This document shows, one piece after another, positions 22,903 through 40,349 of a stretch of 64,000 bases of DNA (position 1 is the stretch's first letter; each line of letters starts with the position of its first letter). Both the position numbers and the translations under genes were made by a program. The notes under the pieces are model-generated. The model had not been told where the DNA came from. It saw only the letters and a program-made list of their open reading frames with translations, and did no database searches. Source of the DNA: Methanofastidiosum sp. (lineage in GTDB: Archaea > Methanobacteriota_B > Thermococci > Methanofastidiosales > Methanofastidiosaceae); contig JBDKUY010000026.1 in the NCBI GenBank assembly GCA_039679445.1, positions 28,523-92,522 of the forward strand. Direction: 5' to 3'.

Positions 22903-23322
22903 TTGAAGGTTCTTATTGCTGGTAATTTTGATGTTATCCATCCAGGACATATCTATTTCTTAACTGAGGCATCAAAATTAGGGGATGTCACCGTTGTTGT
23001 AGCCAGAGATGAAACTATAAAGAAGTTCAAGGGACGTGCCCCGATATTTAATGAGAATGAACGTAAATTGATTCTTGAAAATCTTAAGATGGTTGAAAAA
23101 GTTATACTTGGAGATCAAAAAGATTTTTTTGCTCCGGTCCTAGTGGAGAATCCGGATATTATTTTTCTGGGTCCTGACCAGTATTCCTCGTGGATCGAAG
23201 AACGTATCAGTAAAAGCGGACTTAATACAAAAATAATGAGGCTTGACAAGAGATTACCTTATAGTTCAAGTGAACTTAAGAAGAGGTTTTTAAAGGTATA
23301 CACATTAGATTCTATTAAGTGA
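22903..23322 (+). CDS. ribL: Archaeal FAD synthetase (FMN adenylyltransferase, cytidylyltransferase fold)
   Basis: 139 aa with GNFDVIHPGH (HxGH) nucleotidyltransferase motif. The start is TTG at 22903 after GGTG. Confidence 0.78.
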   Translation: MKVLIAGNFDVIHPGHIYFLTEASKLGDVTVVVARDETIKKFKGRAPIFNENERKLILENLKMVEKVILGDQKDFFAPVLVENPDIIFLGPDQYSSWIEERISKSGLNTKIMRLDKRLPYSSSELKKRFLKVYTLDSIK

Positions 23323-23356
23323 GACTTAGAAATATAATTATCACAGGATTTTTCAT

Positions 23357-24358
23357 ATGTTCAAAGAAATACCTCGTATAGATATAGACGAGATAGTGGA
23401 TAAGGCATTTAGAAATGCTAAGAAAAAAGCCCTCTCTAGTAAAAAAAATATCAATGAGATTGTTAAAGAGAAAGAATCGATTAGAGTTACGGTTGCTGGA
23501 GAAAATTTAGCAGAGTCTGTTTTCAAAGTTGTAGAGAGATACCCTTCGTTTGATAGATTACCACCATTTACAAGAGAGTTGATAGATGTAATTGTTGGCA
23601 TAGATAAATTAAGACACAATTTAGGTGCTCTTTCTTTTGCAGTGAATACAATTAACGCGGTTAAGATAGAGTATATAAAAAATATTAGAAGGGCAAAGTC
23701 CTCTCAGGATGCATCATTTCTGAGAAAACAGTGCTATGGGAGATATATCTCAATATTAAAACAAGTAGAAAAAAATCTAAAATTTTTGAATAATGCACGA
23801 GAGAAACTAAAAAATCTTCCTTCAATAAATCCTGATTTATACACGGTAGTCATTGCAGGATTTCCAAATGTAGGTAAATCTTCACTACTAAAAGCCTTAA
23901 CTAATTCTGAACCTGAAATTAATTCTTATCCATTTACAACAAAAGGAATTAATGTTTCCTCATTTACCTACAATAAAAGAAAGATCCAGGTTGTAGATAC
24001 ACCCGGGCTATTAGATAGAGAACTTAGCTATAGGAATCCAATTGAACTACAAGCTATATCTGCATTGAAGTATCTTGCAAAATTAATTTTATTTGTCTTT
24101 GATCCAACTGAATCATGCGGTTACACCATGGCAGACCAGATGAACCTATATAATGAAATATCTGAGAGTTTTGTAGGCGTTCCATTTATAAAGGTTTTAA
24201 ATAAAACAGATTTAAAAGATTGGGGTTTTAAAGACGACGTGGGGGGCATAAAAATATCTGCTCAAGAAGGGTCAAATATAGACATCTTGAAAAAAAATAT
24301 TGAAGATATACTTTTCAAGTATTTTGAAGAAGAGGTGGATTACTTTGAAAAAGATTGA
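23357..24358 (+). CDS. NOG1-family GTP-binding protein
   Basis: 333 aa with G1 GFPNVGKSS, G3 DTPG and G4 NKTD motifs, and an N-terminal NOG1-like domain. Confidence 0.85.
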   Translation: MFKEIPRIDIDEIVDKAFRNAKKKALSSKKNINEIVKEKESIRVTVAGENLAESVFKVVERYPSFDRLPPFTRELIDVIVGIDKLRHNLGALSFAVNTINAVKIEYIKNIRRAKSSQDASFLRKQCYGRYISILKQVEKNLKFLNNAREKLKNLPSINPDLYTVVIAGFPNVGKSSLLKALTNSEPEINSYPFTTKGINVSSFTYNKRKIQVVDTPGLLDRELSYRNPIELQAISALKYLAKLILFVFDPTESCGYTMADQMNLYNEISESFVGVPFIKVLNKTDLKDWGFKDDVGGIKISAQEGSNIDILKKNIEDILFKYFEEEVDYFEKD

Positions 24359-24833
24359 GCCTATAACAAAAGGACTTACTGGTTTTTTAAGAAGTTTCAA
24401 GAAGATTGTAGAGGATATTGATGAAGGAAAAGAAATTAAGAAAATAGTATTTACTGGAAATCCTTACACTTGCACCCCAATAATTGAACTATTAAGTTAT
24501 GCTATTAGAGAGATGAACAAAGAATTAATTTTTGTTCCGTCGCTTAATATTAATGACCCTTATAAGATGAATCTTTCGGATATTCATTTTGATTTTGTTA
24601 AAGGTGGAAATCCGCTTAACCCAGATTTAAATGTTATACTGGGGGGCCTTGCTATGCGAGGAGGCCCAGATGTAGGTAATGTCAATAGTTTTTTAGAAAA
24701 AATAGGCAACAAAGAAAAAAAGATTGTCGGCGTATGTTTTATGAGCGTTATTGAAAAGGCAGGTTGGTGCGAAGTTGTGCCTTTTGACTATCTGATTGAT
24801 ATACAAATGGATGGTTCATTGTACGGTAGATAA
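24337..24833 (+). CDS. Hypothetical protein (about 165 aa) immediately upstream of ycaO
   Basis: The ORF is tightly packed with ycaO (TAA, 1 nt, ATG). The probable start is TTG near 24337, because the ORF-track ATG at 24300 overlaps nog1. There are 4 Cys residues and no family recognised by eye. Confidence 0.45.
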
Positions 24834-24834
24834 A

Positions 24835-26088
24835 ATGGAACTCAAAAGCTGTAAAAAACAATACATGAAGGATACTCACAGAGCTATCCCCCCAGAAGAA
24901 ACGCTAGAAATCGTCAAAGATAAACTCGATATATGTGGAATCACTAGAGTTGCAGATATAACTGATCTGGATAGACTTGGGATCCCAGTTTTCTCCGCCG
25001 TACGGCCTGACGCATCACAGGGCTCAGTGTCAGTCTATAACGGAAAAGGCGTATCTAAAACTGAGGCGGAGGTATCTGCGATAATGGAAGGTATCGAAAG
25101 ATATTCTTCTGAAGTTAATGAAGAGATGATTTTAGATTCTTCAGAATCTGAATTGAACGGGAAAGTAAATCATTTGTCCCCTTATGAATTAGCATTGCCC
25201 GCCCAAGAGATGTATAACGAATATATAAAAATAGGGTGGGTTAAAGGTTACGATCTTATTAGGAAAGAAGAAATCTATGTGCCTGCAAATTCTGTATTTC
25301 ATCCCTATCCTCTAAAAAGAGATTACCCCCTTTTCAGAACAAACACAAATGGATTGGCTTCTGGGAATACTTTAGAGGAAGCAATTTTTCATGGTCTATG
25401 TGAAGTTATTGAAAGAGACGCATGGTCTCTTGTTGAGATGAAAAGAACTTTCCCCAAGGATCTTATAATTGAGATAAATGATCCTTTACTTGAAGATTTT
25501 CTCAATAGATTTAAGGAAAATGAAATAGAAATTGTTTTTAAAGATATTACTTCTGATGACATAAAAGTTCCAACAATACTTGCTGCAATTGATGATTTGA
25601 GATTAAAGGATCCAACTCTTATGGTAATGGGGATGGGAACTCATATCGACCCGAAAGTAGCCTTATACCGTGCGATAACTGAAGCAGCACAATCAAGATT
25701 GACCCAAATTCACGGTGCTAGAGAAGACACTCAGAAAGCAGAAATGAAAAGAAGGATAGGCTATGACCGTATCAGAAAACTAAACTGGTATTACTTAAAT
25801 AAATTTGGAGTTGAGACAAAGACTTCTGATTTCACAGCTAAAGCTTCAGATGATATCCTAGAAGACATTAATACATTATTAGATATTTTAACTAAGAATG
25901 GAATTAACAGAGCAATCGTTGTTGATCTCACAAGAAGCGAACTTGGAATACCTGTGGTAAGAGTTCTTATTCCTCAACTTGAACAGTATGGTATTGATAA
26001 CTCAAGAATTGGATCAAGAGGGCGGATGAGAGAAGTTGATAAAAATTATTATCTATTTGGGCCCAAGCCTTCCTCTAGAAGAGGCTAA
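24835..26088 (+). CDS. ycaO: YcaO-domain protein (ATP-dependent backbone thioamidation/cyclodehydratase family)
   Basis: YcaO blocks GKGVSKTEAEVSAIMEGIERYS and NGLASGNTLEEAIFHGLCEVIERDA are present. The start is MELKSCKK at 24835. Confidence 0.88.
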   Translation: MELKSCKKQYMKDTHRAIPPEETLEIVKDKLDICGITRVADITDLDRLGIPVFSAVRPDASQGSVSVYNGKGVSKTEAEVSAIMEGIERYSSEVNEEMILDSSESELNGKVNHLSPYELALPAQEMYNEYIKIGWVKGYDLIRKEEIYVPANSVFHPYPLKRDYPLFRTNTNGLASGNTLEEAIFHGLCEVIERDAWSLVEMKRTFPKDLIIEINDPLLEDFLNRFKENEIEIVFKDITSDDIKVPTILAAIDDLRLKDPTLMVMGMGTHIDPKVALYRAITEAAQSRLTQIHGAREDTQKAEMKRRIGYDRIRKLNWYYLNKFGVETKTSDFTAKASDDILEDINTLLDILTKNGINRAIVVDLTRSELGIPVVRVLIPQLEQYGIDNSRIGSRGRMREVDKNYYLFGPKPSSRRG

Positions 26089-26695
26089 ATATATTTTGTC
26101 TTCAGATAAGAAAAGGGAAGTTGTCTACGCCCCTCCAATTAAACGAGGAGATATTCCAAAGGCTGTTTCAGAAGGTTTTGATATAATTGGAATTATTGAT
26201 GGGGTTTTCTTTAGGGAAAGTGCTGTATCGCCTAGAGAGTTAATGGAAGTTCTAAAGAGTGGCGTAAAAATATATGGTGCTTCGAGTATGGGTGCTTTAC
26301 GCGCTTCAGAACTTGATAGGTATGGAATGATAGGAGTTGGAAAAATTTATCAGTGGTATCGGGGCGGAATCCTAAATTCTGATGATGAAGTCGCATTATC
26401 CTTTGATAGTGAAGAATTTATCCCAATATCAGAACCTCTTGTAAATATTAGAGAGACAATAAAAAAAGCCACTAATCAGAATATAATAAGTCCAGAAGAA
26501 TCAGAAATACTCTTCAAATCAGCAAAAAGTTTGTATTTCCCAGAAAGACGATGGAATAAGATAATTGAAAACTCAGAAAAAATATTAGGTAATAAACTTT
26601 CTAATTTTTCCCTATTTGTTAAGAGCAACAGAGTGGATATAAAGAAAGAAGATGCTATCCTTCTTCTTAAAAAGATAGATGAGGATTCGAAATAG
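26036..26695 (+). CDS. tfuA: TfuA-like protein (YcaO partner)
   Basis: MIKIIIYLGPSL...IGIIDGVFF...GASSMGALRASEL matches TfuA domain conservation. It overlaps the ycaO 3' end by 53 nt in another frame. Confidence 0.85.
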   Translation: MIKIIIYLGPSLPLEEAKYILSSDKKREVVYAPPIKRGDIPKAVSEGFDIIGIIDGVFFRESAVSPRELMEVLKSGVKIYGASSMGALRASELDRYGMIGVGKIYQWYRGGILNSDDEVALSFDSEEFIPISEPLVNIRETIKKATNQNIISPEESEILFKSAKSLYFPERRWNKIIENSEKILGNKLSNFSLFVKSNRVDIKKEDAILLLKKIDEDSK

Positions 26696-26723
26696 TTATA
26701 AGTTTCTATCTTAAAGGTTTATC

Positions 26724-27986
26724 ATGAGAAACAATAAAGATCTCTTTGATGAATCAAAAAAATATCTTTGTGGTGGGGTTAATAGTCCTGTTCGGGCCAT
26801 GAAACCGTACCCTTTTTTTACCGAAAGAGCGAAGGGTCCAATGTTATTGGATGTTGAGGGAAACAGTTATATAGATTATTGTTTAGGTTACGGCCCAATG
26901 ATGTTGGGACATAAAAATCCAGAAATCATTGATGCGGTAAAACATCAACTTGAAAAAGGAACTGATTATGGAACACCAACTGAAGATGAGATTACCTTTG
27001 CAAAGAGATTGTCCCAAATTGTGCCCAATGTAGAAAAGGTTAGGTGTGTTAGCACCGGTACTGAAGCGACAATGAGTGCTATACGGCTTGCTAGAGGTAT
27101 AACTCAACGGGATAAGATAGTAAAATTTGATGGGGGATTTCACGGCGCCCATGATGTAGTTTTGGTAAAAGCTGGATCTGGAGTAATGACTACAGCTAGC
27201 CCCGGTTCAATGGGTATACCAAAAGATTCTATAAAAAATACTATTTCTGTGCAATTTAACAACATCGAGGCTTTATCATCTATAGTTGAGAAAGGTAATG
27301 TTGCAGGAATAATAATAGAGCCAATAATTGCAAACGCAGGCTGTATTCTACCTGAAAAAGGATACCTAAAGGAAGTAAAAAGGACTGCAAAACAAAACGG
27401 AACTTTATTGATTATGGACGAAGTTATAACAGGATTTAGAGTTGGTCTAGGTGGTGCTCAGGAATACTTCAAAGTCAATGGAGACATTATAACTATAGGG
27501 AAAATTATTGGTGGAGGATTTCCACTTGCAGCGTTTGGAGGAAAAAAGAAGATAATGAATGAAGTATCTCCCGAAGGTCATGTATATAATGCAGGTACAT
27601 TCAATGGAAATCCAGTTTCTATAGCTGCAGGATTAAAGACTCTAGACATCTTAGAAAGGAAAGAGACATATCCAAAAATAAAGGATATGACCGATAAAAT
27701 CACAGACGGGATTTATGATATGACTTCAAAAATGAAAACTGCGCTATACAGTGCCCCTGGAATGTTTTGTTTATACTTCGGTGTTGACAAAGTTAAAAAT
27801 TATGAAGATGCAAAAAAATCGGATACAGAAATGTTTAAAAAATTCCACAAAGAACTATTAAAAAAAGGTGTATTCTTACCACCTTCGCAATTTGAATGTA
27901 ACTTCTTGTCAATAGACCATGATGAAGAAGTAATAGATAAAACGCTAGAAAGCATGAGTTCTGTGTTAAAGACAATTAAAAGATGA
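26724..27986 (+). CDS. hemL: Glutamate-1-semialdehyde 2,1-aminomutase
   Basis: 420 aa class-III aminotransferase with HemL signature blocks and the PLP lysine region GKIIGGG. It ends in TGA 8 nt before the hemC ATG. Confidence 0.92.
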   Translation: MRNNKDLFDESKKYLCGGVNSPVRAMKPYPFFTERAKGPMLLDVEGNSYIDYCLGYGPMMLGHKNPEIIDAVKHQLEKGTDYGTPTEDEITFAKRLSQIVPNVEKVRCVSTGTEATMSAIRLARGITQRDKIVKFDGGFHGAHDVVLVKAGSGVMTTASPGSMGIPKDSIKNTISVQFNNIEALSSIVEKGNVAGIIIEPIIANAGCILPEKGYLKEVKRTAKQNGTLLIMDEVITGFRVGLGGAQEYFKVNGDIITIGKIIGGGFPLAAFGGKKKIMNEVSPEGHVYNAGTFNGNPVSIAAGLKTLDILERKETYPKIKDMTDKITDGIYDMTSKMKTALYSAPGMFCLYFGVDKVKNYEDAKKSDTEMFKKFHKELLKKGVFLPPSQFECNFLSIDHDEEVIDKTLESMSSVLKTIKR

Positions 27987-27993
27987 GGATAAA

Positions 27994-28890
27994 ATGAAAC
28001 TTATTTGCGGTACTAGAGGCTCAAAGCTAGCTTTGACTCAAACTGATGAAGCAATTAATGATTTATGTAAAAATACTGGAATTGAAGTTGAAAAAAAAAT
28101 AATAAAAACTAAAGGAGACCAGATTCTTGACCTTCCATTGCACAAGATTGGAGGTAAAGGCCTATTCATCAAAGAAATAGATGATGCCCTTATTAACAAT
28201 CAAATTGATTTTGCCATTCATTCTCTAAAGGATTATCCAACTGATATCCTGCCAGAACTTGAAATTTGTGCCATCACTAAAAGAAGGTCCCCTTATGACG
28301 CCATAATAAGTCTTGAAGAATCTATAGAAGATCTGCCAGAAGAAGCTTTAGTTGGTACATCCTCTTTAAGGAGAAAGTCTGAAATATCAAGAATCCGCCC
28401 AGACCTAGACCTTAAAGACATACGGGGAAATTTAGACACAAGAATAAGAAAACTAAAGGAAGGCCTCTATGATGCAATTATTGTCGCAGAAGCTGGATTT
28501 TCAAGATTGTACGGAGATAAAAAAGAAATTGGAGGTTACAGATTTTCTCGAATAAGTCCAGAAACCATTATTCCTGCTCCTGGGCAAGGTGCTTTGGCTA
28601 TTGTATGCAAAAAAGATGATTCTAAAATAAAAGAAGTATTGAAAACTATTGATGACGAGAAGACAAGGATAGAAACGATGTGTGAAAGACAATTCATGAT
28701 TGATGTTGGAGGAGGGTGTAATCTTCCTGTGGGAGCCCTTTCTTTCATAAATGAAAATGAAATAGAACTCAAAGCATTCGTGGGGGATTTGGAAGGGGCT
28801 AAATCTGTCAGGGGCGAAATAAAAGGAAAGAAGGAAGATTATATAAGGATAGCTAAAGAGCTTGCTAAGAGAGTAAATATTAGAGAGTGA
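27994..28890 (+). CDS. hemC: Porphobilinogen deaminase (hydroxymethylbilane synthase)
   Basis: 298 aa with the GTRGSKLALTQT N-terminus and a cofactor-binding Cys region. Confidence 0.92.
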   Translation: MKLICGTRGSKLALTQTDEAINDLCKNTGIEVEKKIIKTKGDQILDLPLHKIGGKGLFIKEIDDALINNQIDFAIHSLKDYPTDILPELEICAITKRRSPYDAIISLEESIEDLPEEALVGTSSLRRKSEISRIRPDLDLKDIRGNLDTRIRKLKEGLYDAIIVAEAGFSRLYGDKKEIGGYRFSRISPETIIPAPGQGALAIVCKKDDSKIKEVLKTIDDEKTRIETMCERQFMIDVGGGCNLPVGALSFINENEIELKAFVGDLEGAKSVRGEIKGKKEDYIRIAKELAKRVNIRE

Positions 28891-28894
28891 TCTT

Positions 28895-30316
28895 TTGGTT
28901 GTATATATAGTAGGTGCAGGCCCAGGCGATCCAAAGTTAATCACAGTAAAAGCACTTGAAATGATAAAAAAAGCTGATGTTATCCTATATGATAAACTTG
29001 TAAGTAAAGATTTACTTTCATACTCCAAGAAGGAGTGCATAAAAATATATGTTGGAAAAAAATCTGAAGGGTCCAGCCAATCTCAAGAAGATATAAATAA
29101 AGAACTATGTGATTATGGGGAAAAATACGATATTGTTGTTAGGCTTAAAGGTGGAGACCCATATATATTTGGTAGAGGTGCAGAGGAAGCGATGTACCTC
29201 TACGAGCGAGGTATACCCTTTGAAGTTATCCCCGGTATTTCATCAACTGTATCATGTCCCATGTATTCAGGAATCCCCCTTTCTTATAGGGAATCGAATT
29301 CAGCGTTTGCGTTTTTAACTGGTCATGAGGCCGAAGATAAATCATTTAGCATAAACTGGGACAAACTTCCAGACACCCTAGTAATAGTAATGGGTATAAA
29401 AAACAGAGCTGCAATAGCTCAAAATCTAATTAAAGCTGGATTCGATCCAAAAACACCAGTGGCCATAATTAAAAATGGAACAACTTTACTTCAAGAAACA
29501 ACAGTGTGTGACCTAAGTACTTTAGGAGAAACCCCTGCCGAGCCACCTTCTGTCATATTTGTAGGCAAAAATGTGTTATTTAGAGATAAACTTGACTTCT
29601 TTGAAAAGAAATTACTTTTGATAAAAGGAAAAGAGATATTCGTCTCCAGAGAAAATGGGGAAGAATTAGAGATTATGAAAAAAATGGGTGCACACATCTT
29701 TGCCTATTCTCTTATTGATATAATTAATATTGAGTTTAAGATTCCCAGATTATCAGATTATGATGTCATCGTCCTTACAAGTGCAACAGGTGTTGATAGG
29801 CTCGAAGGTACTGAGTTACCAGAGGATAAAGAATACTACACAATAGGGCCAAAAACTGAAGAAAAGTTAATTCAAAAGGGAATATATCCCAGAAGACCTG
29901 AAAAATACAATTCAAAAGAACTAGCAAAATTTATGATATCTGAATTTAAGGAAAGAAAAAAGATTTTGACTTTGAGATCACAAGAAGCTCCAGGATACTT
30001 AGAGGAACAATTAATGGAATTTCACGATGTTACAAGGGTTGACGTCTATAAAGTCAAAATGAGGGATGACATACCAGAAAAAAAGAATTTTGACATAGCA
30101 TTCATTTCAAGCTCTTCAAATGCAACAGCCTTTAAAAAGAAAGGATTAAAAGCAGAAACTATTGTCTCAATTGGACCTGAAACTAGTAACGCCCTCACCA
30201 AAAAGGGGATTAATCCGACAATCGAAGCTGATACCCATACTCTTTCAGGCATGCTCGAGGCCTTATTGGACTATCTAATCAGATGTGATAATTTTGACAA
30301 GAATAAAAGATCCTAA
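28895..30316 (+). CDS. cobA/hemD: Bifunctional uroporphyrinogen-III C-methyltransferase / uroporphyrinogen-III synthase
   Basis: The N-terminal half has SUMT motifs (VYIVGAGPGDPKLITVKA, VVRLKGGDPYIFGRG). The C-terminal half is HemD-like. The start is TTG at 28895. Confidence 0.85.
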   Translation: MVVYIVGAGPGDPKLITVKALEMIKKADVILYDKLVSKDLLSYSKKECIKIYVGKKSEGSSQSQEDINKELCDYGEKYDIVVRLKGGDPYIFGRGAEEAMYLYERGIPFEVIPGISSTVSCPMYSGIPLSYRESNSAFAFLTGHEAEDKSFSINWDKLPDTLVIVMGIKNRAAIAQNLIKAGFDPKTPVAIIKNGTTLLQETTVCDLSTLGETPAEPPSVIFVGKNVLFRDKLDFFEKKLLLIKGKEIFVSRENGEELEIMKKMGAHIFAYSLIDIINIEFKIPRLSDYDVIVLTSATGVDRLEGTELPEDKEYYTIGPKTEEKLIQKGIYPRRPEKYNSKELAKFMISEFKERKKILTLRSQEAPGYLEEQLMEFHDVTRVDVYKVKMRDDIPEKKNFDIAFISSSSNATAFKKKGLKAETIVSIGPETSNALTKKGINPTIEADTHTLSGMLEALLDYLIRCDNFDKNKRS

Positions 30317-31389: not shown

Positions 31390-31701
31390 TTATTTTTTAT
31401 TTGTCTTTTTCTTTAGAGGTATATCAAAGTTCATGTCTTTTAGTGTGTCTGTTTTTACAATGGCTTTTACTTTTTCAAGCCCAGAGGTTAGTGATTCATC
31501 AATCTTCAGCCTGTAGACGATAATACCGAGCTGTTCATAACTTTTAACAATGTCTTCATTGTATACTGGGATATCAATTTTAATAGGTTCATCTGTTGGG
31601 TTACCAACGATTATGTCCCTATATCCTAGTTTTGCGACATTTTCTACAATATAGCCACCCATGTTCTGGACATCTTTTGGGAAAAGAATAAATTTAGCCA
31701 T
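31390..31701 (-). CDS. Small hydrophilic hypothetical protein at the 3' end of the hydrogenase operon (EhbP-like position)
   Basis: About 103 aa from MAKFILFPKD. The start is tightly juxtaposed to the NuoH-like gene stop at 31704. The ORF-track start at 31845 would overlap that gene. Confidence 0.4.
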   Translation of the reverse strand: MAKFILFPKDVQNMGGYIVENVAKLGYRDIIVGNPTDEPIKIDIPVYNEDIVKSYEQLGIIVYRLKIDESLTSGLEKVKAIVKTDTLKDMNFDIPLKKKTNKK

Positions 31702-31703
31702 TT

Positions 31704-32759
31704 TTACATCACCGCCAATAGAGATAATACAATTGTAAGGAATCCAAGTGCTGTGAATCCCATTGAAACTGGGTAGATTTGCTTGAAAGTAAATATAGGT
31801 GAGAATGCAGATACTATCGAGAATAGTATTGGCATTATCAAACAAAGTAAGCAGTGTACTAATAGTAAAGGTAAATTAAGTGTCGGTGGAAGCCCTATGA
31901 ACAAAGTTATGAAAACGCTTGAGAGTACAAATAGTATTGATTCTCTCATTAAGTAGTATCCCCCTCTTGCCCAAGCTGCATACTCTAATGATGGTCCCTC
32001 GATTACATCTGATTTAGCTTTTTCAATGCTGAATGGATATTCGTTTAGTAACATAATGTACCCAATGAAGTAAACAAATCCGGCTAACATTCCAGGGAAT
32101 GTAAATAGGATTGGCTTTAGACTCAATATTTTATTAAGGTACATTAAATCAATCAATCCACCTGGATAGATGAATGAAGCATCAAATCCTTGGAATTGAA
32201 CTATGTCGGAGAAATTAATTGATTTTGCTAGAACTACGGGTACGAACATTGCAAGATATAGTGGAAATGATCCCACAGTAATCATCTTAAATGCCCTTAT
32301 CACGCTCTGTTGCTCAAAGAATCTTCTATATTCCCCTTTCATGACTGCACCTTTAATCTGGTCTGCATACGGCATTGAAACAGATAGAATAGATCTTGAA
32401 AAGCTACCAATAGCCATAAACAAAAACTCTATTACTTTTAGTAAACCAACTACCGCTACAACTGTTCCTAGCGCATTTACGCCCCACCAGTCTGGTGTTG
32501 TAAAGAGGGCAGCAAAAAACATCACAAATATTCCAATTATAGGTAGACTGTGGAATAATCTTGGCATTGGTGAATTTGGTTTAATCTTTTCTTTATAGAA
32601 GAACTTAAGAATTGCCCAGAAACCAGGTGTAAGCATAGGTGGCCCTATCCTCTGCTGTATCCTAGCCTGAACTTTCCTTTCAAGACCGGGTATAACGAAT
32701 CCAGTAATTAATGCTGCCAATGGAATAAGTATCGTTGCAAGTATAAGTTCAATCATCAT
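31704..32759 (-). CDS. Energy-converting hydrogenase integral membrane subunit, NuoH/HyfC/EhbO/MbhM-like
   Basis: 351 aa with about 8 TM helices and NuoH-family character. It overlaps the large-subunit stop by 4 nt. Confidence 0.75.
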   Translation of the reverse strand: MMIELILATILIPLAALITGFVIPGLERKVQARIQQRIGPPMLTPGFWAILKFFYKEKIKPNSPMPRLFHSLPIIGIFVMFFAALFTTPDWWGVNALGTVVAVVGLLKVIEFLFMAIGSFSRSILSVSMPYADQIKGAVMKGEYRRFFEQQSVIRAFKMITVGSFPLYLAMFVPVVLAKSINFSDIVQFQGFDASFIYPGGLIDLMYLNKILSLKPILFTFPGMLAGFVYFIGYIMLLNEYPFSIEKAKSDVIEGPSLEYAAWARGGYYLMRESILFVLSSVFITLFIGLPPTLNLPLLLVHCLLCLIMPILFSIVSAFSPIFTFKQIYPVSMGFTALGFLTIVLSLLAVM

Positions 32760-33946
32760 AGACCCCTCCTAATTAGGCTCTTTACATCCTCTTCTGTGAA
32801 AATCCTCTCCTTCCCATTTTCAACAACTATGGCCCTGTTAGTACAGGCCAAACATGGGTCACAGCTTGCCATTGTAAGCATACCATCTGTTAATTGATCC
32901 CCGATGCATGCAACTTCCATTGATGCTAAAGCTGTAAGAGTTGGAGTTCTGTTTTGGTAGCTTCTTATCCTTCCAGTTTCATCAAGAGAAAGAGAATCAT
33001 AAATTTCCCCCCTTGGGGCTTCTATATATGAAGTTGAAAATTTCATTTCCTTCAATTCGAAACTTCTGTTTGATACTGGTCCAGAAGGTAAGGATTCAAG
33101 TGCCTGTTTAATAATCTTAACAGATTCAATTGATTCAAGAGCCCTAGCGACAACTCTGTCTTTGTTATCTCCATCATCTAAGACTATAACATTGAAATCA
33201 AATTTCTTATATTCCTTCATTTTCTTTCTAAGATCGACGCCCCATCCACTTGCTCTACCAGTTGGTCCTGGTGCTGCAAATTTCTGGGCTTCTTCTTTAG
33301 TTAATACTCCGCTTCCTTTTACCCTTGACATAATCATTGAATCATTAATGATCCTATTTGCATAATCGCCTATTTTAACATCTAATTTAGACAACCTAGT
33401 CTTTAATTCAGACATTCTGTAATCATCAATATCACATCTTGGCCTGACCCCACCGAGTATAGGAACTGCATAGTGAACTCTATTACCCGAAATTATGTAT
33501 AGAAGATCCATTATATCTTCCCTCAAGGTAAAAGCCCTCATACACATTGTCTCGTGGCCCAATACTTCAGTTGCATGTGCCAAGTAAATCAAGTGGCTAT
33601 GAAGTCTTTCAAGTTCAGCCATTATGACTCTTATATAATCTGCTCTTTCTGGAACATTAATCCTAAGACCTCTTTCAACAGCCCTTGTACCATTCCAAAG
33701 ATGTATGTGTGAACATATACCGCAAATTCTTTCAGTAATAATAAGGCCTTTATGAACAGGCATCCCTTCCATAATTCTTTCAATACCTTTATGGTAAGGA
33801 TCAAGAGTAAGTTCACAATCAACAATTACTTCGTCCTCTACAAAGAATCTTGCCCTATAAGGTTCAAGCATTCCAGGATGCACAAGACCTATTGGAATTT
33901 CAACTTCTGCCTTTTCTTTTCTAGCTTTTTCCCCCACTCTTATCAC
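32756..33946 (-). CDS. Group 4 [NiFe] hydrogenase large subunit (NuoD-like)
   Basis: N-terminal Ni-binding RICGICSHIH motif and C-terminal DPCLACTNR motif. It is 396 aa with no NuoC fusion. Confidence 0.85.
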   Translation of the reverse strand: MIRVGEKARKEKAEVEIPIGLVHPGMLEPYRARFFVEDEVIVDCELTLDPYHKGIERIMEGMPVHKGLIITERICGICSHIHLWNGTRAVERGLRINVPERADYIRVIMAELERLHSHLIYLAHATEVLGHETMCMRAFTLREDIMDLLYIISGNRVHYAVPILGGVRPRCDIDDYRMSELKTRLSKLDVKIGDYANRIINDSMIMSRVKGSGVLTKEEAQKFAAPGPTGRASGWGVDLRKKMKEYKKFDFNVIVLDDGDNKDRVVARALESIESVKIIKQALESLPSGPVSNRSFELKEMKFSTSYIEAPRGEIYDSLSLDETGRIRSYQNRTPTLTALASMEVACIGDQLTDGMLTMASCDPCLACTNRAIVVENGKERIFTEEDVKSLIRRGL

Positions 33947-34386
33947 CTCTCCAATAATAAAGGTATACCTGCTGCAATACCTGCGATGATATCTTCGGGT
34001 CTAGGAGGGCATCCCGGAATATACGCATCAACGGGTATTACCTCATCTACTCTGCAAACTACTTCGTCACTGTCCCCAAGTTCTCCACCAAAATCTTTGA
34101 ATATACCACATCTAACTCCGCATGAGCCAACTGCAGCAACTATTTTTGGTTCAGGAATTGCCTCATAAATTTTCTTTAAAGGTTCTATTGTTCTTCTTAA
34201 AACAGGCCCTGTAACAGCTAGTACATCTGCTTCCCTTGGATTCCAAGTTAGTATGACTTTGTACTGCTCAAGATCATATCTCGGTGACCATGCAACATTT
34301 GCAACTTCAATATCGCATCCATTACACCCGCCTGTGTAAAACAACATGACATGAATTGCGTTTTTTCTAGAAAGTTTTTTTAACAT
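33943..34386 (-). CDS. [NiFe] hydrogenase small subunit (NuoB-like, proximal 4Fe-4S)
   Basis: 147 aa with GGCNGCDIE, GSCGVRCG and GCPPRP motifs. Confidence 0.85.
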   Translation of the reverse strand: MLKKLSRKNAIHVMLFYTGGCNGCDIEVANVAWSPRYDLEQYKVILTWNPREADVLAVTGPVLRRTIEPLKKIYEAIPEPKIVAAVGSCGVRCGIFKDFGGELGDSDEVVCRVDEVIPVDAYIPGCPPRPEDIIAGIAAGIPLLLER

Positions 34387-34388
34387 TT

Positions 34389-34874
34389 TTACACCTCTTC
34401 AAAATACTTTGAGGAGTCCTTAGCCATTATATCAATGATTTCTTTTATCTGAGCTTCTTTGAGTTTTATTGGTTCTTTTAAGAGCTTAGCAGGGTCGGCT
34501 TTAAATTCTCCAACTTCTCTTGGATGAATTGCCCCAGGCTTTCCGTAGAATGCATAAATTGGACAGTTATCGTGGCACCAAAAACAGTAAAGGCATTTTA
34601 AGGGATCGTATTTTGGAGTCTGTGTCTTTGTGTACCCTTTTACTATTTCAACTGGTTTCTCTAGAGGCACCATTTCTATTGCTTCTACTGGACAGATATT
34701 AGCACATCCCCCACACCCGATGCATGATTCATCGTTAACAGCTTCGGGATATTTCACCTTGCCTTGAAGTATTGAATTTCTGATATCTTTACTTGTTACT
34801 CTATCAGCAGCAAAAAGTATTCTAAGGATATTTACATAAATACCCCTAAGAAATATTAAAAAAATACTTTTCAT
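34389..34874 (-). CDS. 2[4Fe-4S] ferredoxin subunit (NuoI-like)
   Basis: CIGCGGCANICP and CLYCFWCHDNCP motifs. Confidence 0.75.
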   Translation of the reverse strand: MKSIFLIFLRGIYVNILRILFAADRVTSKDIRNSILQGKVKYPEAVNDESCIGCGGCANICPVEAIEMVPLEKPVEIVKGYTKTQTPKYDPLKCLYCFWCHDNCPIYAFYGKPGAIHPREVGEFKADPAKLLKEPIKLKEAQIKEIIDIMAKDSSKYFEEV

Positions 34875-35854
34875 TATTTAGACCTCCCGTTAATAGTTCT
34901 GTCTTCAAAATCTGTCTGTACATTAATTGCATAAGCTGGACAAATATTATCACATGCACCACATCTAATGCATTTTTTCATATCAAAGACAAGTTTTTTG
35001 GACTTGACAGATATTGCGTCAGATGGACAAATTTTAACACACTGCTCACACATTATACATAAATCATCATTGTAGGTAAGTGTTCCACCTTTGATTTCTT
35101 TGTGATATCTTGTCTTTCTTGGAAGACATTGGACGGGACAATATGCACCACAGTTTTCACACATTACGCATTTTTCAAGATTTACTCTAAATCCGTTCAA
35201 ATCGACCTCAATGCACTTAGTTGGACAGACTTCTTTGCAGATACCACATTGGATACATCCTTCGTGTTCTCCTTGCCACTCTCTGTAGTTTAACTTAATT
35301 GCATCTTTTTTACAAGCTGTTGTACAAATTCCACAAAGGATACAGTGACCAGTGAACATCTTCTCTCTTTCACTTGTCATAATTTTTGTTGGACAAGCTT
35401 TAACACAAAGATTACAATTGATACATGTTACTGTATCAAATCTTATTCTTCCTCCTTCCCACTTTAAAGCATCTGTTGGACAGGCATCCACACATAGTCC
35501 ACATTGATTACAATAATAGAGTTTCCTTTTTGAGTTGCCCTTAATTATCTTAGGTCTGTGATTTTCAATGACAATTGCATTATTAATACATTTTCTAACA
35601 CAAGTGTAACAAGAAACACATTTTCCATAATCGATGAAGGAATTTTTTATTGCGCCTACTGGACAAACATCCATACACACATCACAATGAGTGCAAACCC
35701 CAGGAGTTGCTTCATATTTTATTGCGTTTGCAGGGCAGTAGTAAGTACATCGGCCTCCTTTATCGCATCTATTTTCATCTATGGCTATGCTTAAGAGCTT
35801 GGCTTTTCCTTTAGTCTGAACTGGACCTCCGTCCCTATCTTTTTGCTTTGGCAT
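34874..35854 (-). CDS. Polyferredoxin, about 10 [4Fe-4S] clusters
   Basis: 326 aa with about 10 CxxCxxCxxxC(P) motifs, as in methanogen Eha/Ehb or Mvh polyferredoxins. Confidence 0.8.
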   Translation of the reverse strand: MPKQKDRDGGPVQTKGKAKLLSIAIDENRCDKGGRCTYYCPANAIKYEATPGVCTHCDVCMDVCPVGAIKNSFIDYGKCVSCYTCVRKCINNAIVIENHRPKIIKGNSKRKLYYCNQCGLCVDACPTDALKWEGGRIRFDTVTCINCNLCVKACPTKIMTSEREKMFTGHCILCGICTTACKKDAIKLNYREWQGEHEGCIQCGICKEVCPTKCIEVDLNGFRVNLEKCVMCENCGAYCPVQCLPRKTRYHKEIKGGTLTYNDDLCIMCEQCVKICPSDAISVKSKKLVFDMKKCIRCGACDNICPAYAINVQTDFEDRTINGRSK

Positions 35855-36243
35855 TATCTCTTCACCTCTTCGATTGTCATTGACTCAAGATTAAACCTAA
35901 GCTTTCCTTCGGCATTGACTCTGGCGCCCATTGGACAAACGTCTCTGCAAACATTGCACATTGCACATATGCCCTCTGGAACTTTCTTATTCTTGTACTT
36001 GACCATCTTTATAACGCTGACAGGGCAGTTCTTTTCACATATGGAGCATCCAATGCATTTTTCTTTGTCTACGATATACCCTCCATATCTATTTTTGAAT
36101 ATAGCATCGACAGGACATACTTCCATGCATTTGCCACATGTGACACAACTGAAAGCTTTGTCATTAATTATTCTAGTACTCTTCGTAGGGCATGCTTCTA
36201 CGCACTTCTTAGCTAGATTACATTTATCAGTGGCAATGTACAT
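35854..36243 (-). CDS. Ferredoxin with 3-4 [4Fe-4S] motifs
   Basis: 129 aa with four CxxCxxCxxxCP-type motifs. Confidence 0.7.
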   Translation of the reverse strand: MYIATDKCNLAKKCVEACPTKSTRIINDKAFSCVTCGKCMEVCPVDAIFKNRYGGYIVDKEKCIGCSICEKNCPVSVIKMVKYKNKKVPEGICAMCNVCRDVCPMGARVNAEGKLRFNLESMTIEEVKR

Positions 36244-36244
36244 C

Positions 36245-36523
36245 TTATTGCCTCCTTATGACCATTGCAATGAAGACTCCGAGCACAGTTGAAAAGAATG
36301 CTTCTGAGAATCTGATTATATGTCCAAATAATGTCCATTGATAATCTGGATATGTGCCCAATGCTGCTGCAATCAGTATAGATACTATCAAAATTACAGG
36401 ATACTTCGCCTTGCTTATCTCTTCAGAGTTGACTTTGTATCCAATTATAATTCCATAAATAAGACCAAATAATATTGGCCCCCATTGATTTGCAAGTCCA
36501 AGTGCTGCAACTTCGCTACTCAT
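36245..36523 (-). CDS. Small hydrogenase-operon membrane protein (92 aa)
   Basis: Two to three TM helices, within an operon with Mrp-like subunits. Confidence 0.4.
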   Translation of the reverse strand: MSSEVAALGLANQWGPILFGLIYGIIIGYKVNSEEISKAKYPVILIVSILIAAALGTYPDYQWTLFGHIIRFSEAFFSTVLGVFIAMVIRRQ

Positions 36524-37313
36524 CTTTCTTCGCCCCCATTAAGAACATGGCTATTAGCGAAAGACCTGCCAACACGTTTAATCCTACACCTATGTTCAAG
36601 TACGGAAGTACTCCTGGGTGTGTTGGATCGGGGTAATCAAGAAAATTATCCCATCCAAATGCTCCAACATGTATTATATCATATGGATCAACACCTGTAT
36701 TGTATAGGTAGTAACCTGTTCCGTAATAATATGTAGTAAAGACAAGCCCAACCACTCCTGTTAGTAAGAATATCAATGCCCCGATAGTTGATAGATTTAC
36801 AAGATATTTATGGGTAAATCTTAGAGGTGTTTTCTTAAGGCCATAAATAACAACAGTTAGGAAGTATCCAGTAGCTATTACTGCTCCACCTGGGAAACCT
36901 CCACCAGGCGAAATATGTCCACCGAGGACAATTGTAACACCAAAGGCTACAAGGAATATTGCTAATGGGAAGGCCATCAATCTTTGAATAACTGTAGATT
37001 TATCTGTCATTTCAGGAGTTTCTTTTTTCGTGTATCCTTTTAATGAACCCCACCCAAATACAACTGTTGTTGTTATTACGGCAGTAATCAGGATGAAAGT
37101 TTCTCCTAATGTATCGTATCCTCTAAAGTCAAACAGTATAACTGTAATAACATTAGGTGCAATATTACCACTGTACAAATTGTATAGGTAACTCATTCCA
37201 GGTACCAAATAATCGCTAAACTGGTAAAGTGTTCTCAGGATAACAAATGAAGCTATCACTAAAGATACCCCTGCGATTATATTTCTACCCTGCTGATAGT
37301 TACTTGTTTTCAC
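36516..37313 (-). CDS. MrpB/MnhB-like antiporter-module subunit
   Basis: 265 aa with the ILFDFRGYDTLGE motif characteristic of the MnhB domain. Confidence 0.7.
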   Translation of the reverse strand: MKTSNYQQGRNIIAGVSLVIASFVILRTLYQFSDYLVPGMSYLYNLYSGNIAPNVITVILFDFRGYDTLGETFILITAVITTTVVFGWGSLKGYTKKETPEMTDKSTVIQRLMAFPLAIFLVAFGVTIVLGGHISPGGGFPGGAVIATGYFLTVVIYGLKKTPLRFTHKYLVNLSTIGALIFLLTGVVGLVFTTYYYGTGYYLYNTGVDPYDIIHVGAFGWDNFLDYPDPTHPGVLPYLNIGVGLNVLAGLSLIAMFLMGAKKDE

Positions 37314-37625
37314 TTAAATCCCTCCTAAGAATATGACAAATAGAAGTGCAAGTGTTAGAGCCACATAGAACGACGATAAGTTTATGGAATCAGTATTTTC
37401 TTTCTCTACTTTGAACACGGTAGGCACTGTAAATAGAATTCCTCCAAGGATAATAAGTGCGCCAAATCCCAATATTGTTGAATTGGCCGTTCGTAATACT
37501 AGTATTGCTCCTATTAGAAGGAATGATAGCATTAGAAATTCTGATGTAAGGGCACTTCCTATACCCATTCCTTGTCCTTTATCTTTCATCTTTTCATGGA
37601 ATATTTCGTATACTTTCTCTAACAA
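37314..37625 (-). CDS. Small membrane subunit of the hydrogenase antiporter module (103 aa)
   Basis: Two to three TM helices in operon context. Confidence 0.4.
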   Translation of the reverse strand: MLEKVYEIFHEKMKDKGQGMGIGSALTSEFLMLSFLLIGAILVLRTANSTILGFGALIILGGILFTVPTVFKVEKENTDSINLSSFYVALTLALLFVIFLGGI

Positions 37626-37628
37626 TTA

Positions 37629-39098
37629 TCACACCCCCAAGGAAACAACAAAATTGTATATCGGATCGTAGATGATATTTGGGAACAATCCTATTGCAAG
37701 ACATGTTAGTATCAATATCACTATAATTGTCTTGAACATAGTTCCACGCACTTCGGTATTGACTTCTACTTTTGGCCCTGGTTTCATGAATATCATGAAG
37801 AATGCTTTTATAACCGCAACAAATGTTGCTACGCTCAATAATATTACAAGTACTCCAAGTTCAGGAACTCCTGCTTGAGTTGCGGCTTGGATTAATCTCC
37901 ATTCACTTTGATAGGAATTAAATGGTGGGACTCCCGATATAGCCAGAGTTGCCAATAACATTACAAATCCTACTAAAGGAACAACCTGTAATCCATCTCC
38001 AAGTTCATCAAGTTTTGTTGTTTTGAATTTATCGTAAACAAAGCTTGCAATGAAGAATAGTATTGCCATGCTTAATACATCATTAATTGCATGGAAAATA
38101 CCTGCTGCAATACCAAAGGAAGTACCTATTCCAAAACCTACCGCTACAAGTCCCGCTTGGGATACAGCTACAAACGACAAAAGCTTTCTAAGTTCTACCT
38201 GTTGTAAAGCCATTACAGAACCTAAGACAACGGTAAATATTGCTAATCACAACATTACAGATTTTAGAAGATCAAAGCCAGTGAAAACTCTGAATAGGAT
38301 TATAGCCATTGCAACAAGAACAAACTTAGACTGAACTTGTAATAATGCAGATATTTCCGGTTTTGCATTTTCGTACATATTACATTTAATTATATGAAAT
38401 GGAAAAAGACCTGATTCATAGAGCCAACCCAATGTTAGCAATGCCACAGCAGATAACGCAATTGGATTTAACTGCCCACCGGCTTTTATGGCGTTGGATA
38501 GATCTGTTATATTCAAAAGTCCGTATACCCCCAAGAGAAGAGCAATTCCTAATAGAATTGAAGCTCCGGAGATTGTTCCAAAAATCATATATTTAAATCC
38601 TGCTTTGAATGATTTAGTATCTTGGACTGCTATTACAAGTGCGACTTGCGCAACTACTAAGATTTCTGTGAAAACGAAGAAGTTGAATATATCATCTGCC
38701 AACATTATTGCACTAGTTGAAGCCAGACTGATGAAAATCATGGCGATATATACCCCCGAAATCATCTTTTTATTGAGTACAGTCAGAACAGTAAAACCAG
38801 TAATTATGGTAAGAACTACCATTAGTATTTTCTGCACAGGCCCATAAGAGTATACTATTCCCATGTATACATCAGGTATTAACAACTTAGATATTTCGGG
38901 AAAACTGCCTGTTCGAAGATGGCCGCTGAACAAATGCACCCCATACAGAGTTACAAGTGGTACAAAGACAAAGATAATCAACGATACTATAGAGATAAAC
39001 TTTACAGATTTATCTTTTTGATGCAGAAAGTTTACTAATATCGCCATTATAAGCGGGAGTACAACCATCAATGGGATCAAAGTACTATTGTTTAACAT
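37629..39098 (-). CDS. NuoL/NuoN/MrpD-like proton/cation-translocating subunit (EhbF/MbhH-like) with a single in-frame TGA at 38247-38249
   Basis: ORFs 38247-39098 and 37629-38213 are in the same frame (start-to-stop offset of 36 nt) and are separated only by one TGA plus 11 sense codons. The N-terminal part has NuoL-family blocks FVFTEILVVAQVALVIA, KAGFKYMIFGTISGA and GLFPFH. The C-terminal part has LRKLLSFVAVSQAG and GVPPFNSYQSEW. The combined 490 codons match family length. Confidence 0.75.
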
Positions 39099-39503
39099 TT
39101 ATTCTTCCCCCTCAAACATTTTTTGAACGCTAAGAGTATGATATTTGTTATATAACACAACTGCAAGTGCCAGCATTACTGAGAGTGTAGATGCTCCAAT
39201 AACAATGTTTGTAAGAACTAATGCAAATGGCAACGAGTATGAAGCGTTGCTTGCAAATTCACCAAATTCTAGTAAATGAGAATAATTTGATGGTGTCGCA
39301 GAAGCGTGAAAGTGATGCATTACCTCAGGAATAAATCCTCCAGGCCTATAACCAATGGTAATCAAAACAAGATTTACTCCATCACCAATCAAGTTAGCAC
39401 CAATTATTTTTTTCAGGATGTTGTCCATCATTAATAGTGCCCATAGCCCTGTTACAATCAGTATGCCTGCTGTAAGGAAAGAAGCTACCTGAAATGGTTC
39501 CAT
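39099..39503 (-). CDS. MrpC/NuoK-like small membrane subunit
   Basis: 134 aa and 3 TM with NuoK-like character (ANLIGDGVNLVLIT). Confidence 0.5.
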   Translation of the reverse strand: MEPFQVASFLTAGILIVTGLWALLMMDNILKKIIGANLIGDGVNLVLITIGYRPGGFIPEVMHHFHASATPSNYSHLLEFGEFASNASYSLPFALVLTNIVIGASTLSVMLALAVVLYNKYHTLSVQKMFEGEE

Positions 39504-39746
39504 TTATTCATCCCTCCCCTGTGTCGTTTTGTAGAGTGCTACTATGAAAAGACCGGGAAGTAGTGCTGCACCTAAAATTGCTTGTACCGCAGCAACGTCT
39601 GTAGCAAGTAAGAAATGGAATATTGCTGCCAACGAAAAACTTTCAAAAGTTAAAATAATAATACTCTTGTAAAGATTTTCCTGTATTATCGCCATTAAAG
39701 CGGACAAAGCTACTGCAAATAACAATATATAATCAAACATTATCAT
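39504..39746 (-). CDS. Small membrane subunit (80 aa, MbhD/MrpB-N-like)
   Basis: Two TM helices in operon context. Confidence 0.4.
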   Translation of the reverse strand: MIMFDYILLFAVALSALMAIIQENLYKSIIILTFESFSLAAIFHFLLATDVAAVQAILGAALLPGLFIVALYKTTQGRDE

Positions 39747-40020
39747 CAGCCTCCGTTAAATCTGCCCAAGATATAGAATGGACTGCTAAAGGCATTAGGA
39801 AAAAATGAGCTAAAGCAGCTAAAATTGCAACTGGATTTCCAAGGAAAATAATAACAAGTATGCATACGACATCCATTACACCTAAAATATGAAGTCTTGC
39901 ATATACTATGTTCTTCCTCTGTCCAAATCTGAAAAGACCTAAAGCAACACCTATAAGACCCATTCCCGCTATTAAATAGAAATAAGGAAGTAGTAGTTCC
40001 ATATATGAATATACGTTCAT
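39733..40020 (-). CDS. MrpG/MnhG-like subunit
   Basis: 95 aa with a YARLHILG motif, corresponding to the MnhG RLHAAGK region. Confidence 0.55.
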   Translation of the reverse strand: MNVYSYMELLLPYFYLIAGMGLIGVALGLFRFGQRKNIVYARLHILGVMDVVCILVIIFLGNPVAILAALAHFFLMPLAVHSISWADLTEADDNV

Positions 40021-40349
40021 TCTGCAATCCCCCCTCTAAAGAATCTAGAAATTATCAATGTTCCTACTGGACCGAGTAGAAGTAAATAAATTGCTATATC
40101 AGAAAAATAAGGAATCCCATACATTTTTCCTACAATCATGAAACCCGTCGCAACACCAATTTCGGCAGCACTCGCACCAGCTAGGGAATTACATACCCCC
40201 CTAAAAGTAGTTACTCTGAGACCAGAAATAATAGCAACGCTGAGTCCTATCAGCATCACGTAAACATAATAGTCTTTAAGTTGGAGATAATGACCGACTA
40301 CCAAGATTACAGCTAAAATCAGCACCAATAAAATATTATTTTTGTTCAT
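40017..40349 (-). CDS. MrpF/MnhF-like subunit
   Basis: 110 aa and 3 TM, in the position after MrpE. Confidence 0.45.
   Translation of the reverse strand: MNKNNILLVLILAVILVVGHYLQLKDYYVYVMLIGLSVAIISGLRVTTFRGVCNSLAGASAAEIGVATGFMIVGKMYGIPYFSDIAIYLLLLGPVGTLIISRFFRGGIAE

Follow-up and report, generated by a model that had tools for sequence, protein, structure and literature searches.

A YcaO-TfuA gene pair of the McrA-glycine thioamidation type in a dense gene run of Methanofastidiosum

Gene content and organization of the locus

The window, which is the whole analyzed stretch of 64 kb of DNA from a Methanofastidiosum sp., contains the gene ycaO (24835..26088, + strand; 417 amino acids, ATG start) coding for an ATP-dependent McrA-glycine thioamidation enzyme, also called methanogenesis marker protein 1. 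It is followed on the + strand by tfuA (26036..26695), which encodes the TfuA partner of 219 amino acids and starts with TTG. The two genes overlap by 53 nt (26036..26088). A gene encoding a DUF2124 family protein of 162 amino acids, likewise with a TTG start, is located upstream of ycaO (24345..24833, + strand), and its TAA stop codon (24831-24833) is separated by a single base from the ATG of ycaO at 24835. Downstream of tfuA lie the + strand genes hemL (26724-27986; Pfam Aminotran_3), hemC (27994-28890; Porphobil_deam(+C)) and a cobA/hemD fusion (28895-30316; TP_methylase and HEM4), which are involved in the early steps of tetrapyrrole biosynthesis toward precursors of sirohydrochlorin, F430, and cobamide.

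The first-pass annotation had already named YcaO, TfuA, hemL, hemC, and cobA/hemD, all of which were confirmed by Pfam, and the 53-nt overlap as well as the TAA-N-ATG coupling it had described are both present in the ORFs. It had let the upstream gene begin at position 24337, giving 165 amino acids, but this position is out of frame. The TTG at 24345 was assigned instead, since six related contigs, whose genes were called independently, and 15 of 15 close homologues agree on this start. For TfuA, the TTG start was chosen because the NF033432 profile aligns from residue 3 and the TfuA domain protein of PDB 6XP8 from residue 4, and it is required for the conserved N-terminal strand 'IIIYLGPSL'.

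Further + strand genes were identified with Pfam on both sides. Upstream, these are a cytidylyltransferase-like gene (22903-23322) and the gene of a NOG1-type GTPase (23357-24358), which overlaps the DUF2124 gene by 14 nt. Downstream, a riboflavin-type ECF S component (30285-30806) ends 1 nt before the gene of the tRNA wybutosine methyltransferase TYW3 (30808-31374). Thus, ten + strand genes are packed between 22903 and 31374 with every intergenic gap being at most 34 nt, and the same order of ten genes is found in the original MAGs of Ca. Methanofastidiosum methylothiophilum (GCA_001587695.1 and GCA_001587655.1). Because the whole run, including the genes for NOG1 and TYW3, is packed in this way, the 1-nt coupling between the DUF2124 gene and ycaO is uninformative.

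Finally, an operon of an Ehb-type energy-converting [NiFe] hydrogenase was detected by Pfam on the - strand (31390..40349), 7 kb away. It comprises EhbP, an NADHdh-like protein, the large and small subunits, polyferredoxins, MnhB/MbhE and antiporter-like subunits, and its genes recur on two further contigs with an identical hemL (L001 and L002). The presence of this operon indicates that the source organism is a methanogen.

Family assignment, source lineage, and substrate

YcaO scores 460.9 bits against the equivalog TIGR03266 ('YcaO-related McrA-glycine thioamidation protein'; cut-off 365), with residues 14-395 aligning to positions 1-375 of the 376 profile positions. The match to Pfam PF02624 (312.7 bits) covers the full profile (1-325 of 325), which indicates a complete ATP/Mg-binding domain. 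Both of its motifs, EGIERYS and EVIERDAW, were found, with their glutamate and arginine residues being invariant across the YcaO alignment A3. The nearest matches outside the genus are named McrA-glycine thioamidation proteins with 52-57% identity over the full length, and their hosts are Methanothrix, ANME-2, Methanosarcinales, and Methanomassiliicoccales. Among solved structures, the closest relatives are MJ1094 (6PE3/6PEU, 241.9 bits) and the YcaO of 6CI7/6CIB (138.8 bits), aligned over residues ~10-406; we take these to be the thioamide-forming enzymes of Methanocaldococcus jannaschii and Methanopyrus kandleri. TfuA reaches 284.8 bits against the equivalog NF033432 ('TfuA-related McrA-glycine thioamidation protein'; cut-off 235.2), 149.2 bits against Pfam PF07812 and 183.6 bits against PDB 6XP8. 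Both proteins are therefore members of the McrA-glycine thioamidation families at equivalog level.

The source lineage is established by identity. Four window proteins exactly match NCBI entries with consecutive numbers, MEN6378846-49, which come from a Methanofastidiosum sp. MAG and bear the same names already. They are the DUF2124 protein (MEN6378846.1, 'DUF2124 family protein [Methanofastidiosum sp.]'), YcaO (MEN6378847.1), TfuA (MEN6378848.1, 'TfuA-related McrA-glycine thioamidation protein') and HemL (MEN6378849.1, glutamate-1-semialdehyde 2,1-aminomutase).

Methanofastidiosa are methyl-reducing methanogens. Their mcr genes are present and expressed (PMC7302380), their MCR forms a separate phylogenetic cluster (PMC5943407), and they are described as MCR-containing methanogens (PMC7302380; PMC5943407). 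At least one other MCR modification gene, mm10, is lacking (PMC5943407). Within the window, no MCR family was detected by Pfam scans of the likely-gene ORFs of at least 110 amino acids, not counting those antisense to a larger gene that contains them and a small number of further ones (e.g., 616-951 and 56369-56803), and queries with McrA and McrG using phmmer had no match among all 546 window ORFs. This agrees with the earlier observation that mcr genes do not occur within the 64 kb. Likewise, no mcr genes were found in the ~10 kb past each window end, on contigs sharing identical proteins.

The first-pass annotation correctly stated that YcaO-TfuA installs backbone thioamides and that the archaeal target is the thioglycine of McrA, but regarded the target at this locus as unknown. 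That view finds no support, as both equivalog cut-offs are passed in a Methanofastidiosum MAG, a lineage with known MCR (PMC7302380; PMC5943407). The first-pass annotation had itself named mcrABG elsewhere in the genome as the finding that would make this the ordinary pair, and at the level of the lineage the literature reports mcr. This YcaO is encoded by all methanogen and ANME genomes, tfuA as a rule overlaps ycaO, mcr lies nearby only occasionally, and in methanogens ycaO-tfuA and mcr are normally located apart (PMC5589413). The puzzle of the missing substrate dissolves, because the pair belongs to the McrA clade, the lineage bears MCR and mcr is usually unlinked. We infer that this organism possesses mcrA and a thioglycine in McrA.

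Neighboring genes and alternative readings

The surroundings of ycaO were surveyed on genome contigs scanned with the YcaO alignment and those of the DUF2124 gene on metagenome contigs scanned with a narrower alignment (A4). At the ycaO loci of other lineages, tfuA is located directly 3' of ycaO in 75 of 80 cases, and neither hemC nor cobA/hemD occurs at any of the 80. Eight Methanoregula-type loci show just a weak match to a class-III aminotransferase (56-119 bits), 2.9-5.8 kb off and on the opposite strand. A conserved linkage between ycaO-tfuA and tetrapyrrole genes was therefore rejected, and their proximity in the window is a lineage-specific arrangement.

These counts bear on the possibility that ycaO-tfuA and hemL-hemC-cobA/hemD form a unit provisioning MCR, in which McrA maturation would be co-expressed with the synthesis of the tetrapyrrole precursor of F430. 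F430 derives from sirohydrochlorin, and both products end up serving MCR; moreover, the genes lie on the same strand with gaps of 4-28 nt and in an order that is constant across the genus. However, the hem genes also serve cobamide synthesis, and the genes for NOG1, the ECF S component and TYW3 are unrelated members of the same run. Together with the absence of hemC and cobA/hemD from the loci of other lineages, this makes such a unit unlikely.

The protein encoded upstream of ycaO, which had previously been described as belonging to an unrecognised family, was classified by HMM as DUF2124 (PF09897) with 132.4 bits (cut-off 27). Its AF2 model is a globular alpha/beta structure with a pLDDT of 93.7 and replaced a first model that was built from the shallow alignment A1 (pLDDT 67.8). 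The model matches PDB 2R47 (MTH_862) with a TM score of 0.88-0.93, an rmsd of 1.5 Å and 29% identity, and the profile match to 2R47 has an E-value of 4.7e-44. A similarity to the phosphoribosyltransferase fold is weak (TM about 0.4, rmsd 8-10 Å) and was set aside with regard to function. A role as substrate or precursor was also rejected, as this is a well-folded protein of 162 amino acids that occurs without an adjacent YcaO in other lineages. Cys43 is invariant in DUF2124 and, in the AF2 model, lies between the first beta-strand and the helix 44-53, just ahead of the latter. The diverse DUF2124 alignment A2 has no stretch conserved enough for scanning genomes. The family is small, with 97 clusters at 50% identity among 1.84 billion representatives, and its members were seen only in methanogens, the named ones belonging to Methanofastidiosum, Methanofollis, Methanoregula, and Methanothermobacter. 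No paper on DUF2124 turned up in a search of the literature.

The reciprocal surveys found no conserved linkage of this family to the thioamidation genes. No DUF2124 gene is located within 10 kb of ycaO at any of 80 ycaO-tfuA loci of other methanogens and ANME, and neither ycaO nor tfuA was detected at the 87 DUF2124 loci outside Methanofastidiosum (0 of 80 metagenomic and 0 of 7 further loci). Elsewhere the commonest DUF2124 neighbor is frhB (34 of 80 loci), and at three loci (L092, L093, and L164) the gene lies 1.4-2.5 kb from an mcr operon. From these contexts it is conceivable, if very improbable, that DUF2124 is an accessory factor for the maturation of methanogen metalloenzymes or of MCR, which was recruited into the ycaO-tfuA operon of Methanofastidiosum, for example as a sulfur relay via Cys43. 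Its recurrent adjacency to frhADGB in Methanomicrobiales, and its occasional adjacency to mcr there, would then reflect the same role.

The first-pass annotation had raised the possibility that the upstream protein is a third component of the system. As a conserved component it is ruled out, since the co-occurrence check places DUF2124 beside ycaO-tfuA in Methanofastidiosum only. A component specific to this genus, such as a cysteine-persulfide relay or a chaperone presenting McrA to YcaO-TfuA, would fit the 1-nt TAA-N-ATG coupling, which is kept across all Methanofastidiosum contigs that were examined, even where DUF2124 identity falls to 64%, as well as the restriction of this small family to methanogens, the invariant Cys43 and the three loci near mcr. 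Against this stand the zero counts in both surveys, the usual association with frhB and the general packing of the run, in which NOG1 and DUF2124 overlap and the ECF S component directly precedes TYW3. In addition, the same protein database gave 7242 matches for YcaO (E <= 1e-20) and 51 for the DUF2124 profile (E <= 1e-3) in searches that are unequal in threshold and word-index sensitivity; this suggests, at the level of sequence matches, that most thioglycine-containing methanogens may lack DUF2124. A genus-specific third component is thus considered very improbable.

The YcaO of E. coli modifies the ribosomal protein uL16. That the pair of the window acts on another substrate, either a RiPP precursor or a further protein such as a ribosomal protein, is the least probable reading: in its favor, the window lacks mcr, a second class of proteins is thioamidated by YcaO enzymes (PMC13063428) and YcaO-TfuA homologues also occur in non-methanogenic archaea (PMC5589413), but both proteins score above the McrA-clade cut-offs, the uS12/EcYcaO-type model yields just 29.7 bits (cut-off 700), the gaps between 22903 and 31374 leave no space for a precursor gene, and the remaining ORFs of at least 50 amino acids near ycaO-tfuA, among which no precursor peptide was found, are all antisense or overlapping, with neighbors being housekeeping genes.

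The locus therefore very probably represents the ordinary McrA-thioglycine YcaO-TfuA pair of Methanofastidiosum, with DUF2124 and the hem genes outside the thioamidation system. Weighing against it are the absence of mcr from the window and from the ~10 kb past its ends, the divergent MCR of Methanofastidiosa with its missing mm10 (PMC5943407), and, as regards DUF2124, the genus-wide 1-nt coupling. The pair would turn one backbone amide of a conserved McrA glycine into a thioamide, forming thioglycine. This is in line with M. acetivorans, in which the thioamide of McrA Gly465 is lost upon deletion of ycaO-tfuA (PMC5589413). By analogy to the characterized family, a sulfide equivalent would attack the glycine carbonyl, which YcaO would activate with ATP to an O-phosphorylated hemiorthoamide, and TfuA would deliver the sulfide by hydrolyzing a thiocarboxylated ThiS-like carrier protein, the hydrolase function being given for TfuA in a summary contained in PMC13063428. 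The substrate gene mcrA is presumably located elsewhere in the genome, as for most methanogens, and DUF2124 and hemL-hemC-cobA/hemD would be neighbors in this genus only, within a dense run of ten otherwise unrelated genes.

Comparison with known systems

The ycaO-tfuA locus is already known and correctly annotated, and its function is a well-characterized housekeeping function of methanogens. It adds neither a new target nor a new component to thioamidation. Its residual value lies in the orphan family DUF2124, which gains two context clues, the coupling to ycaO in Methanofastidiosum and the recurrent frh neighborhood at Methanomicrobiales-type loci, and these could steer its functional assignment.

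In Actinobacteria, the YcaO-TfuA RiPP clusters for thioviridamide and other thioamitides contain an adjacent precursor peptide gene and tailoring genes. The enzyme pair and the backbone-thioamide chemistry are common to these clusters and the window, but the latter offers no space for a precursor gene and its YcaO and TfuA belong to the methanogen clade. With regard to DUF2124, MTH_862 of Methanothermobacter thermautotrophicus (2R47, a structural-genomics structure) shares the Pfam family and the fold, whereas the coupling to ycaO is confined to Methanofastidiosum. MJ1094 and the YcaO of 6CI7/6CIB are full-length sequence homologues of the window YcaO, which has a TfuA partner, while tfuA is absent from Methanocaldococcus and Methanopyrus (PMC5589413).

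The genetically proven locus for McrA Gly465 is that of M. acetivorans (MA0165/MA0164; Nayak et al., 2017, PMC5589413), which encodes the same two families. The window pair differs in that its host is an uncultured methyl-reducing Methanofastidiosum with a divergent MCR, and that its genes overlap by 53 nt with a TTG start instead of by stop and start codon. Both hosts are methanogens, and in both tfuA is located immediately 3' of ycaO and overlaps it, with no linkage of the pair to mcr.

Organization of the gene run around ycaO

On the plus strand, ORF calls and Pfam matches delimit a run of ten co-directional genes (22903-31374) coding for a cytidylyltransferase-like protein (22903-23322), a NOG1-type GTPase (23357-24358), a DUF2124 protein (24345-24833), YcaO (24835-26088), TfuA (26036-26695), HemL (26724-27986), HemC (27994-28890), a CobA/HemD fusion (28895-30316), an ECF S component (30285-30806) and TYW3 (30808-31374). 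The distances between them are, in this order, 34, -14, 1, -53, 28, 7, 4, -32, and 1 nt. The trio DUF2124-ycaO-tfuA and its arrangement as described in the first-pass annotation are real: the TAA-N-ATG junction ahead of ycaO and the 53-nt overlap of ycaO and tfuA are seen in the sequence, and the hem genes are present 3′ of the pair.

The start first proposed for the upstream gene, 24337, is out of frame. Its start is the TTG at 24345, giving 162 amino acids; six related contigs have the gene called from the same point, and all 15 close homologues begin there as well. The product, previously listed as of an unrecognised family, belongs to Pfam DUF2124 (132 bits). Among 1.84 billion representatives, this small family accounts for 97 clusters (50% identity, E <= 1e-3), and its named members are all from methanogens (Methanofastidiosum, Methanofollis, Methanoregula/Methanoregulaceae, and Methanothermobacter). 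The AlphaFold model, built on a 37-sequence alignment, is confident (pLDDT 93.7) and fits PDB 2R47 (MTH_862, "protein of unknown function") with a TM of 0.88-0.93. Residues G38, C43, and G101 are invariant.

Source lineage and further features of the window

Homologues of the DUF2124 protein with 64-94% identity carry the name Candidatus Methanofastidiosum. DUF2124, YcaO, TfuA, and HemL are identical to MEN6378846-49, four entries in a row at NCBI from a 104,208-bp contig of a Methanofastidiosum sp. MAG, named by PGAP as "DUF2124 family protein", "YcaO-related McrA-glycine thioamidation protein", "TfuA-related McrA-glycine thioamidation protein" and "glutamate-1-semialdehyde 2,1-aminomutase", respectively. 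The gene order is also that of the original Ca. Methanofastidiosum methylothiophilum MAGs (GCA_001587695.1 and GCA_001587655.1). Methanofastidiosa are described as H2-dependent methyl-reducing methanogens that have Ehb, Hdr/Mvh, and mcr genes, the last of these expressed (PMC7302380), and their MCR forms a separate phylogenetic cluster of its own (PMC5943407).

An operon for an Ehb-type energy-converting hydrogenase lies on the minus strand (31390-40349). The gene for one of its antiporter-like subunits (Proton_antipo_M/NADHdeh_related, 37629-39098, minus) contains an in-frame TGA at 38247-38249 (...SVML*LAIF...), which could stem from faulty sequencing or assembly, mark a pseudogene or be a recoded codon; two related contigs (L001 and L002) carry one intact gene of 488-489 amino acids. 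On the minus strand (5577-7214), a HisKA_7TM histidine kinase is present as overlapping pieces, one at 5951-6760 that covers only profile positions 61-224 and a HisKA-like one at 5577-5963; together with an incomplete UbiA prenyltransferase ORF (6594-7214), they suggest frameshifts or mis-assembly. An intact HisKA_7TM kinase of 563 amino acids is located at 11416-13107. A split archaeal-type glutamate synthase (54393-59383, minus) consists of separate GATase_2, Glu_synthase+Fer4, and GXGXG genes, with a small Fer4 protein and an oxidoreductase of the Pyr_redox_2/Rubredoxin_C type encoded in between. The tetrahydrofolate C1 cluster (59498-63981; 10551-15045 on the related contig L175) encodes formate-THF ligase, 5-formyl-THF cyclo-ligase, and a folylpolyglutamate-synthase-like Mur ligase, and is followed by FolD and SHMT on related contigs.

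Neighborhood of ycaO and DUF2124 in other lineages

Co-localization was tested from both sides. A YcaO alignment scanned against the species genomes of GTDB yielded 80 loci from Methanothrix, Methanomicrobiales, Methanomassiliicoccales, ANME-1, ANME-2, and others, with tfuA immediately 3′ of ycaO in 75. A scan of metagenome contigs with a DUF2124 alignment yielded 80 DUF2124 loci (27 of them flanked by 3 kb or more on both sides), and seven more were examined singly.

It is possible that the hem genes and ycaO-tfuA form a loose grouping for MCR, uniting F430 precursor synthesis with McrA maturation, but the comparative evidence gives this no support. Neither hemC nor cobA/hemD occurs in any of the 80 ycaO loci. 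The sole "hemL" matches come from eight Methanoregula-type loci; they score weakly (56-119 bits), are paralogues of the class-III aminotransferase type and lie on the other strand at a distance of 2.9-5.8 kb. The hem surroundings, like the DUF2124 neighbor, are thus lineage-specific.

DUF2124 was found within ±10 kb of ycaO in none of the 80 loci, and neither ycaO nor tfuA in any of the 87 DUF2124 loci, so that its adjacency to ycaO is specific to Methanofastidiosum. This speaks against the upstream gene as a third component, and a lineage-specific accessory role is very improbable. Compared with the 14 nt that DUF2124 shares with the NOG1 gene, or the single nucleotide separating the ECF S component from TYW3, the 1-nt coupling to ycaO carries no additional weight. 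The DUF2124 product is a compact globular alpha/beta protein and does not resemble a precursor peptide.

Outside Methanofastidiosum, in the metagenome loci (L094-L173) and in L087-L090, DUF2124 is a repeated neighbor of the F420-reducing hydrogenase operon frhADGB. The two are arranged in no fewer than three ways: convergent at a distance of 60-600 bp, co-directional with DUF2124 0.2-2.3 kb 3′ of frhB, or convergent at 5-7 kb. Of the 80 metagenome loci, 34 have frhB no more than 10 kb away, and 26 no more than 2.5 kb away. This neighborhood could reflect inherited synteny or a functional link. Only three other-lineage loci have mcrA nearby, at 1.4-2.5 kb: a Methanoregulaceae MAG and two metagenome/ENA contigs (L092, 1819-3504 and 6001-6504; L093, arranged alike; L164, 9965-13596). 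A metallo-beta-lactamase-fold gene is close to DUF2124 in these three and adjoins it in L152 and L169.

Assignment of the YcaO-TfuA pair

YcaO matches TIGR03266 with 460.9 bits (equivalog cut-off 365) and TfuA matches NF033432 with 284.8 bits (cut-off 235.2), both models being defined as McrA-glycine thioamidation proteins; the E. coli-type YcaO model reaches only 29.7 bits (cut-off 700). The best homologues outside the genus, full-length at 52-57% identity, are McrA-glycine thioamidation proteins of Methanothrix, ANME-2, Methanosarcinales, and Methanomassiliicoccales. McrA-type pairs (~50-55% identity to this YcaO) were also found in MAGs labeled Bathyarchaeia, Archaeoglobales, Nitrososphaeria, and Nitrososphaerota; presumably these either belong to members that bear MCR/ACR or sit on contigs placed in the wrong bin.

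These equivalog-level matches, the methanogen lineage and the literature on mcr lend no support to the earlier view that the target is unknown. The locus very probably encodes the ordinary, previously annotated pair by which a methanogen forms the McrA thioglycine, with no conserved third partner, and the uncultured source organism would carry mcrA and the thioglycine. As first reported, scans of the window found no mcr genes; none occur within ~10 kb past either end on contigs sharing identical proteins. This absence from 64 kb is expected rather than anomalous, because the mcr operon is only occasionally near ycaO-tfuA (PMC5589413).

Relatives with solved structures are MJ1094 (6PE3/6PEU), the YcaO of 6CI7/6CIB and the TfuA 6XP8. 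As summarised in PMC13063428, TfuA is understood as a hydrolase of a thiocarboxylated ThiS-like carrier, delivering sulfide equivalents. This YcaO is encoded in all methanogen and ANME genomes, where tfuA normally overlaps ycaO, and deletion of ycaO-tfuA in M. acetivorans leads to loss of the Gly465 thioamide (PMC5589413).
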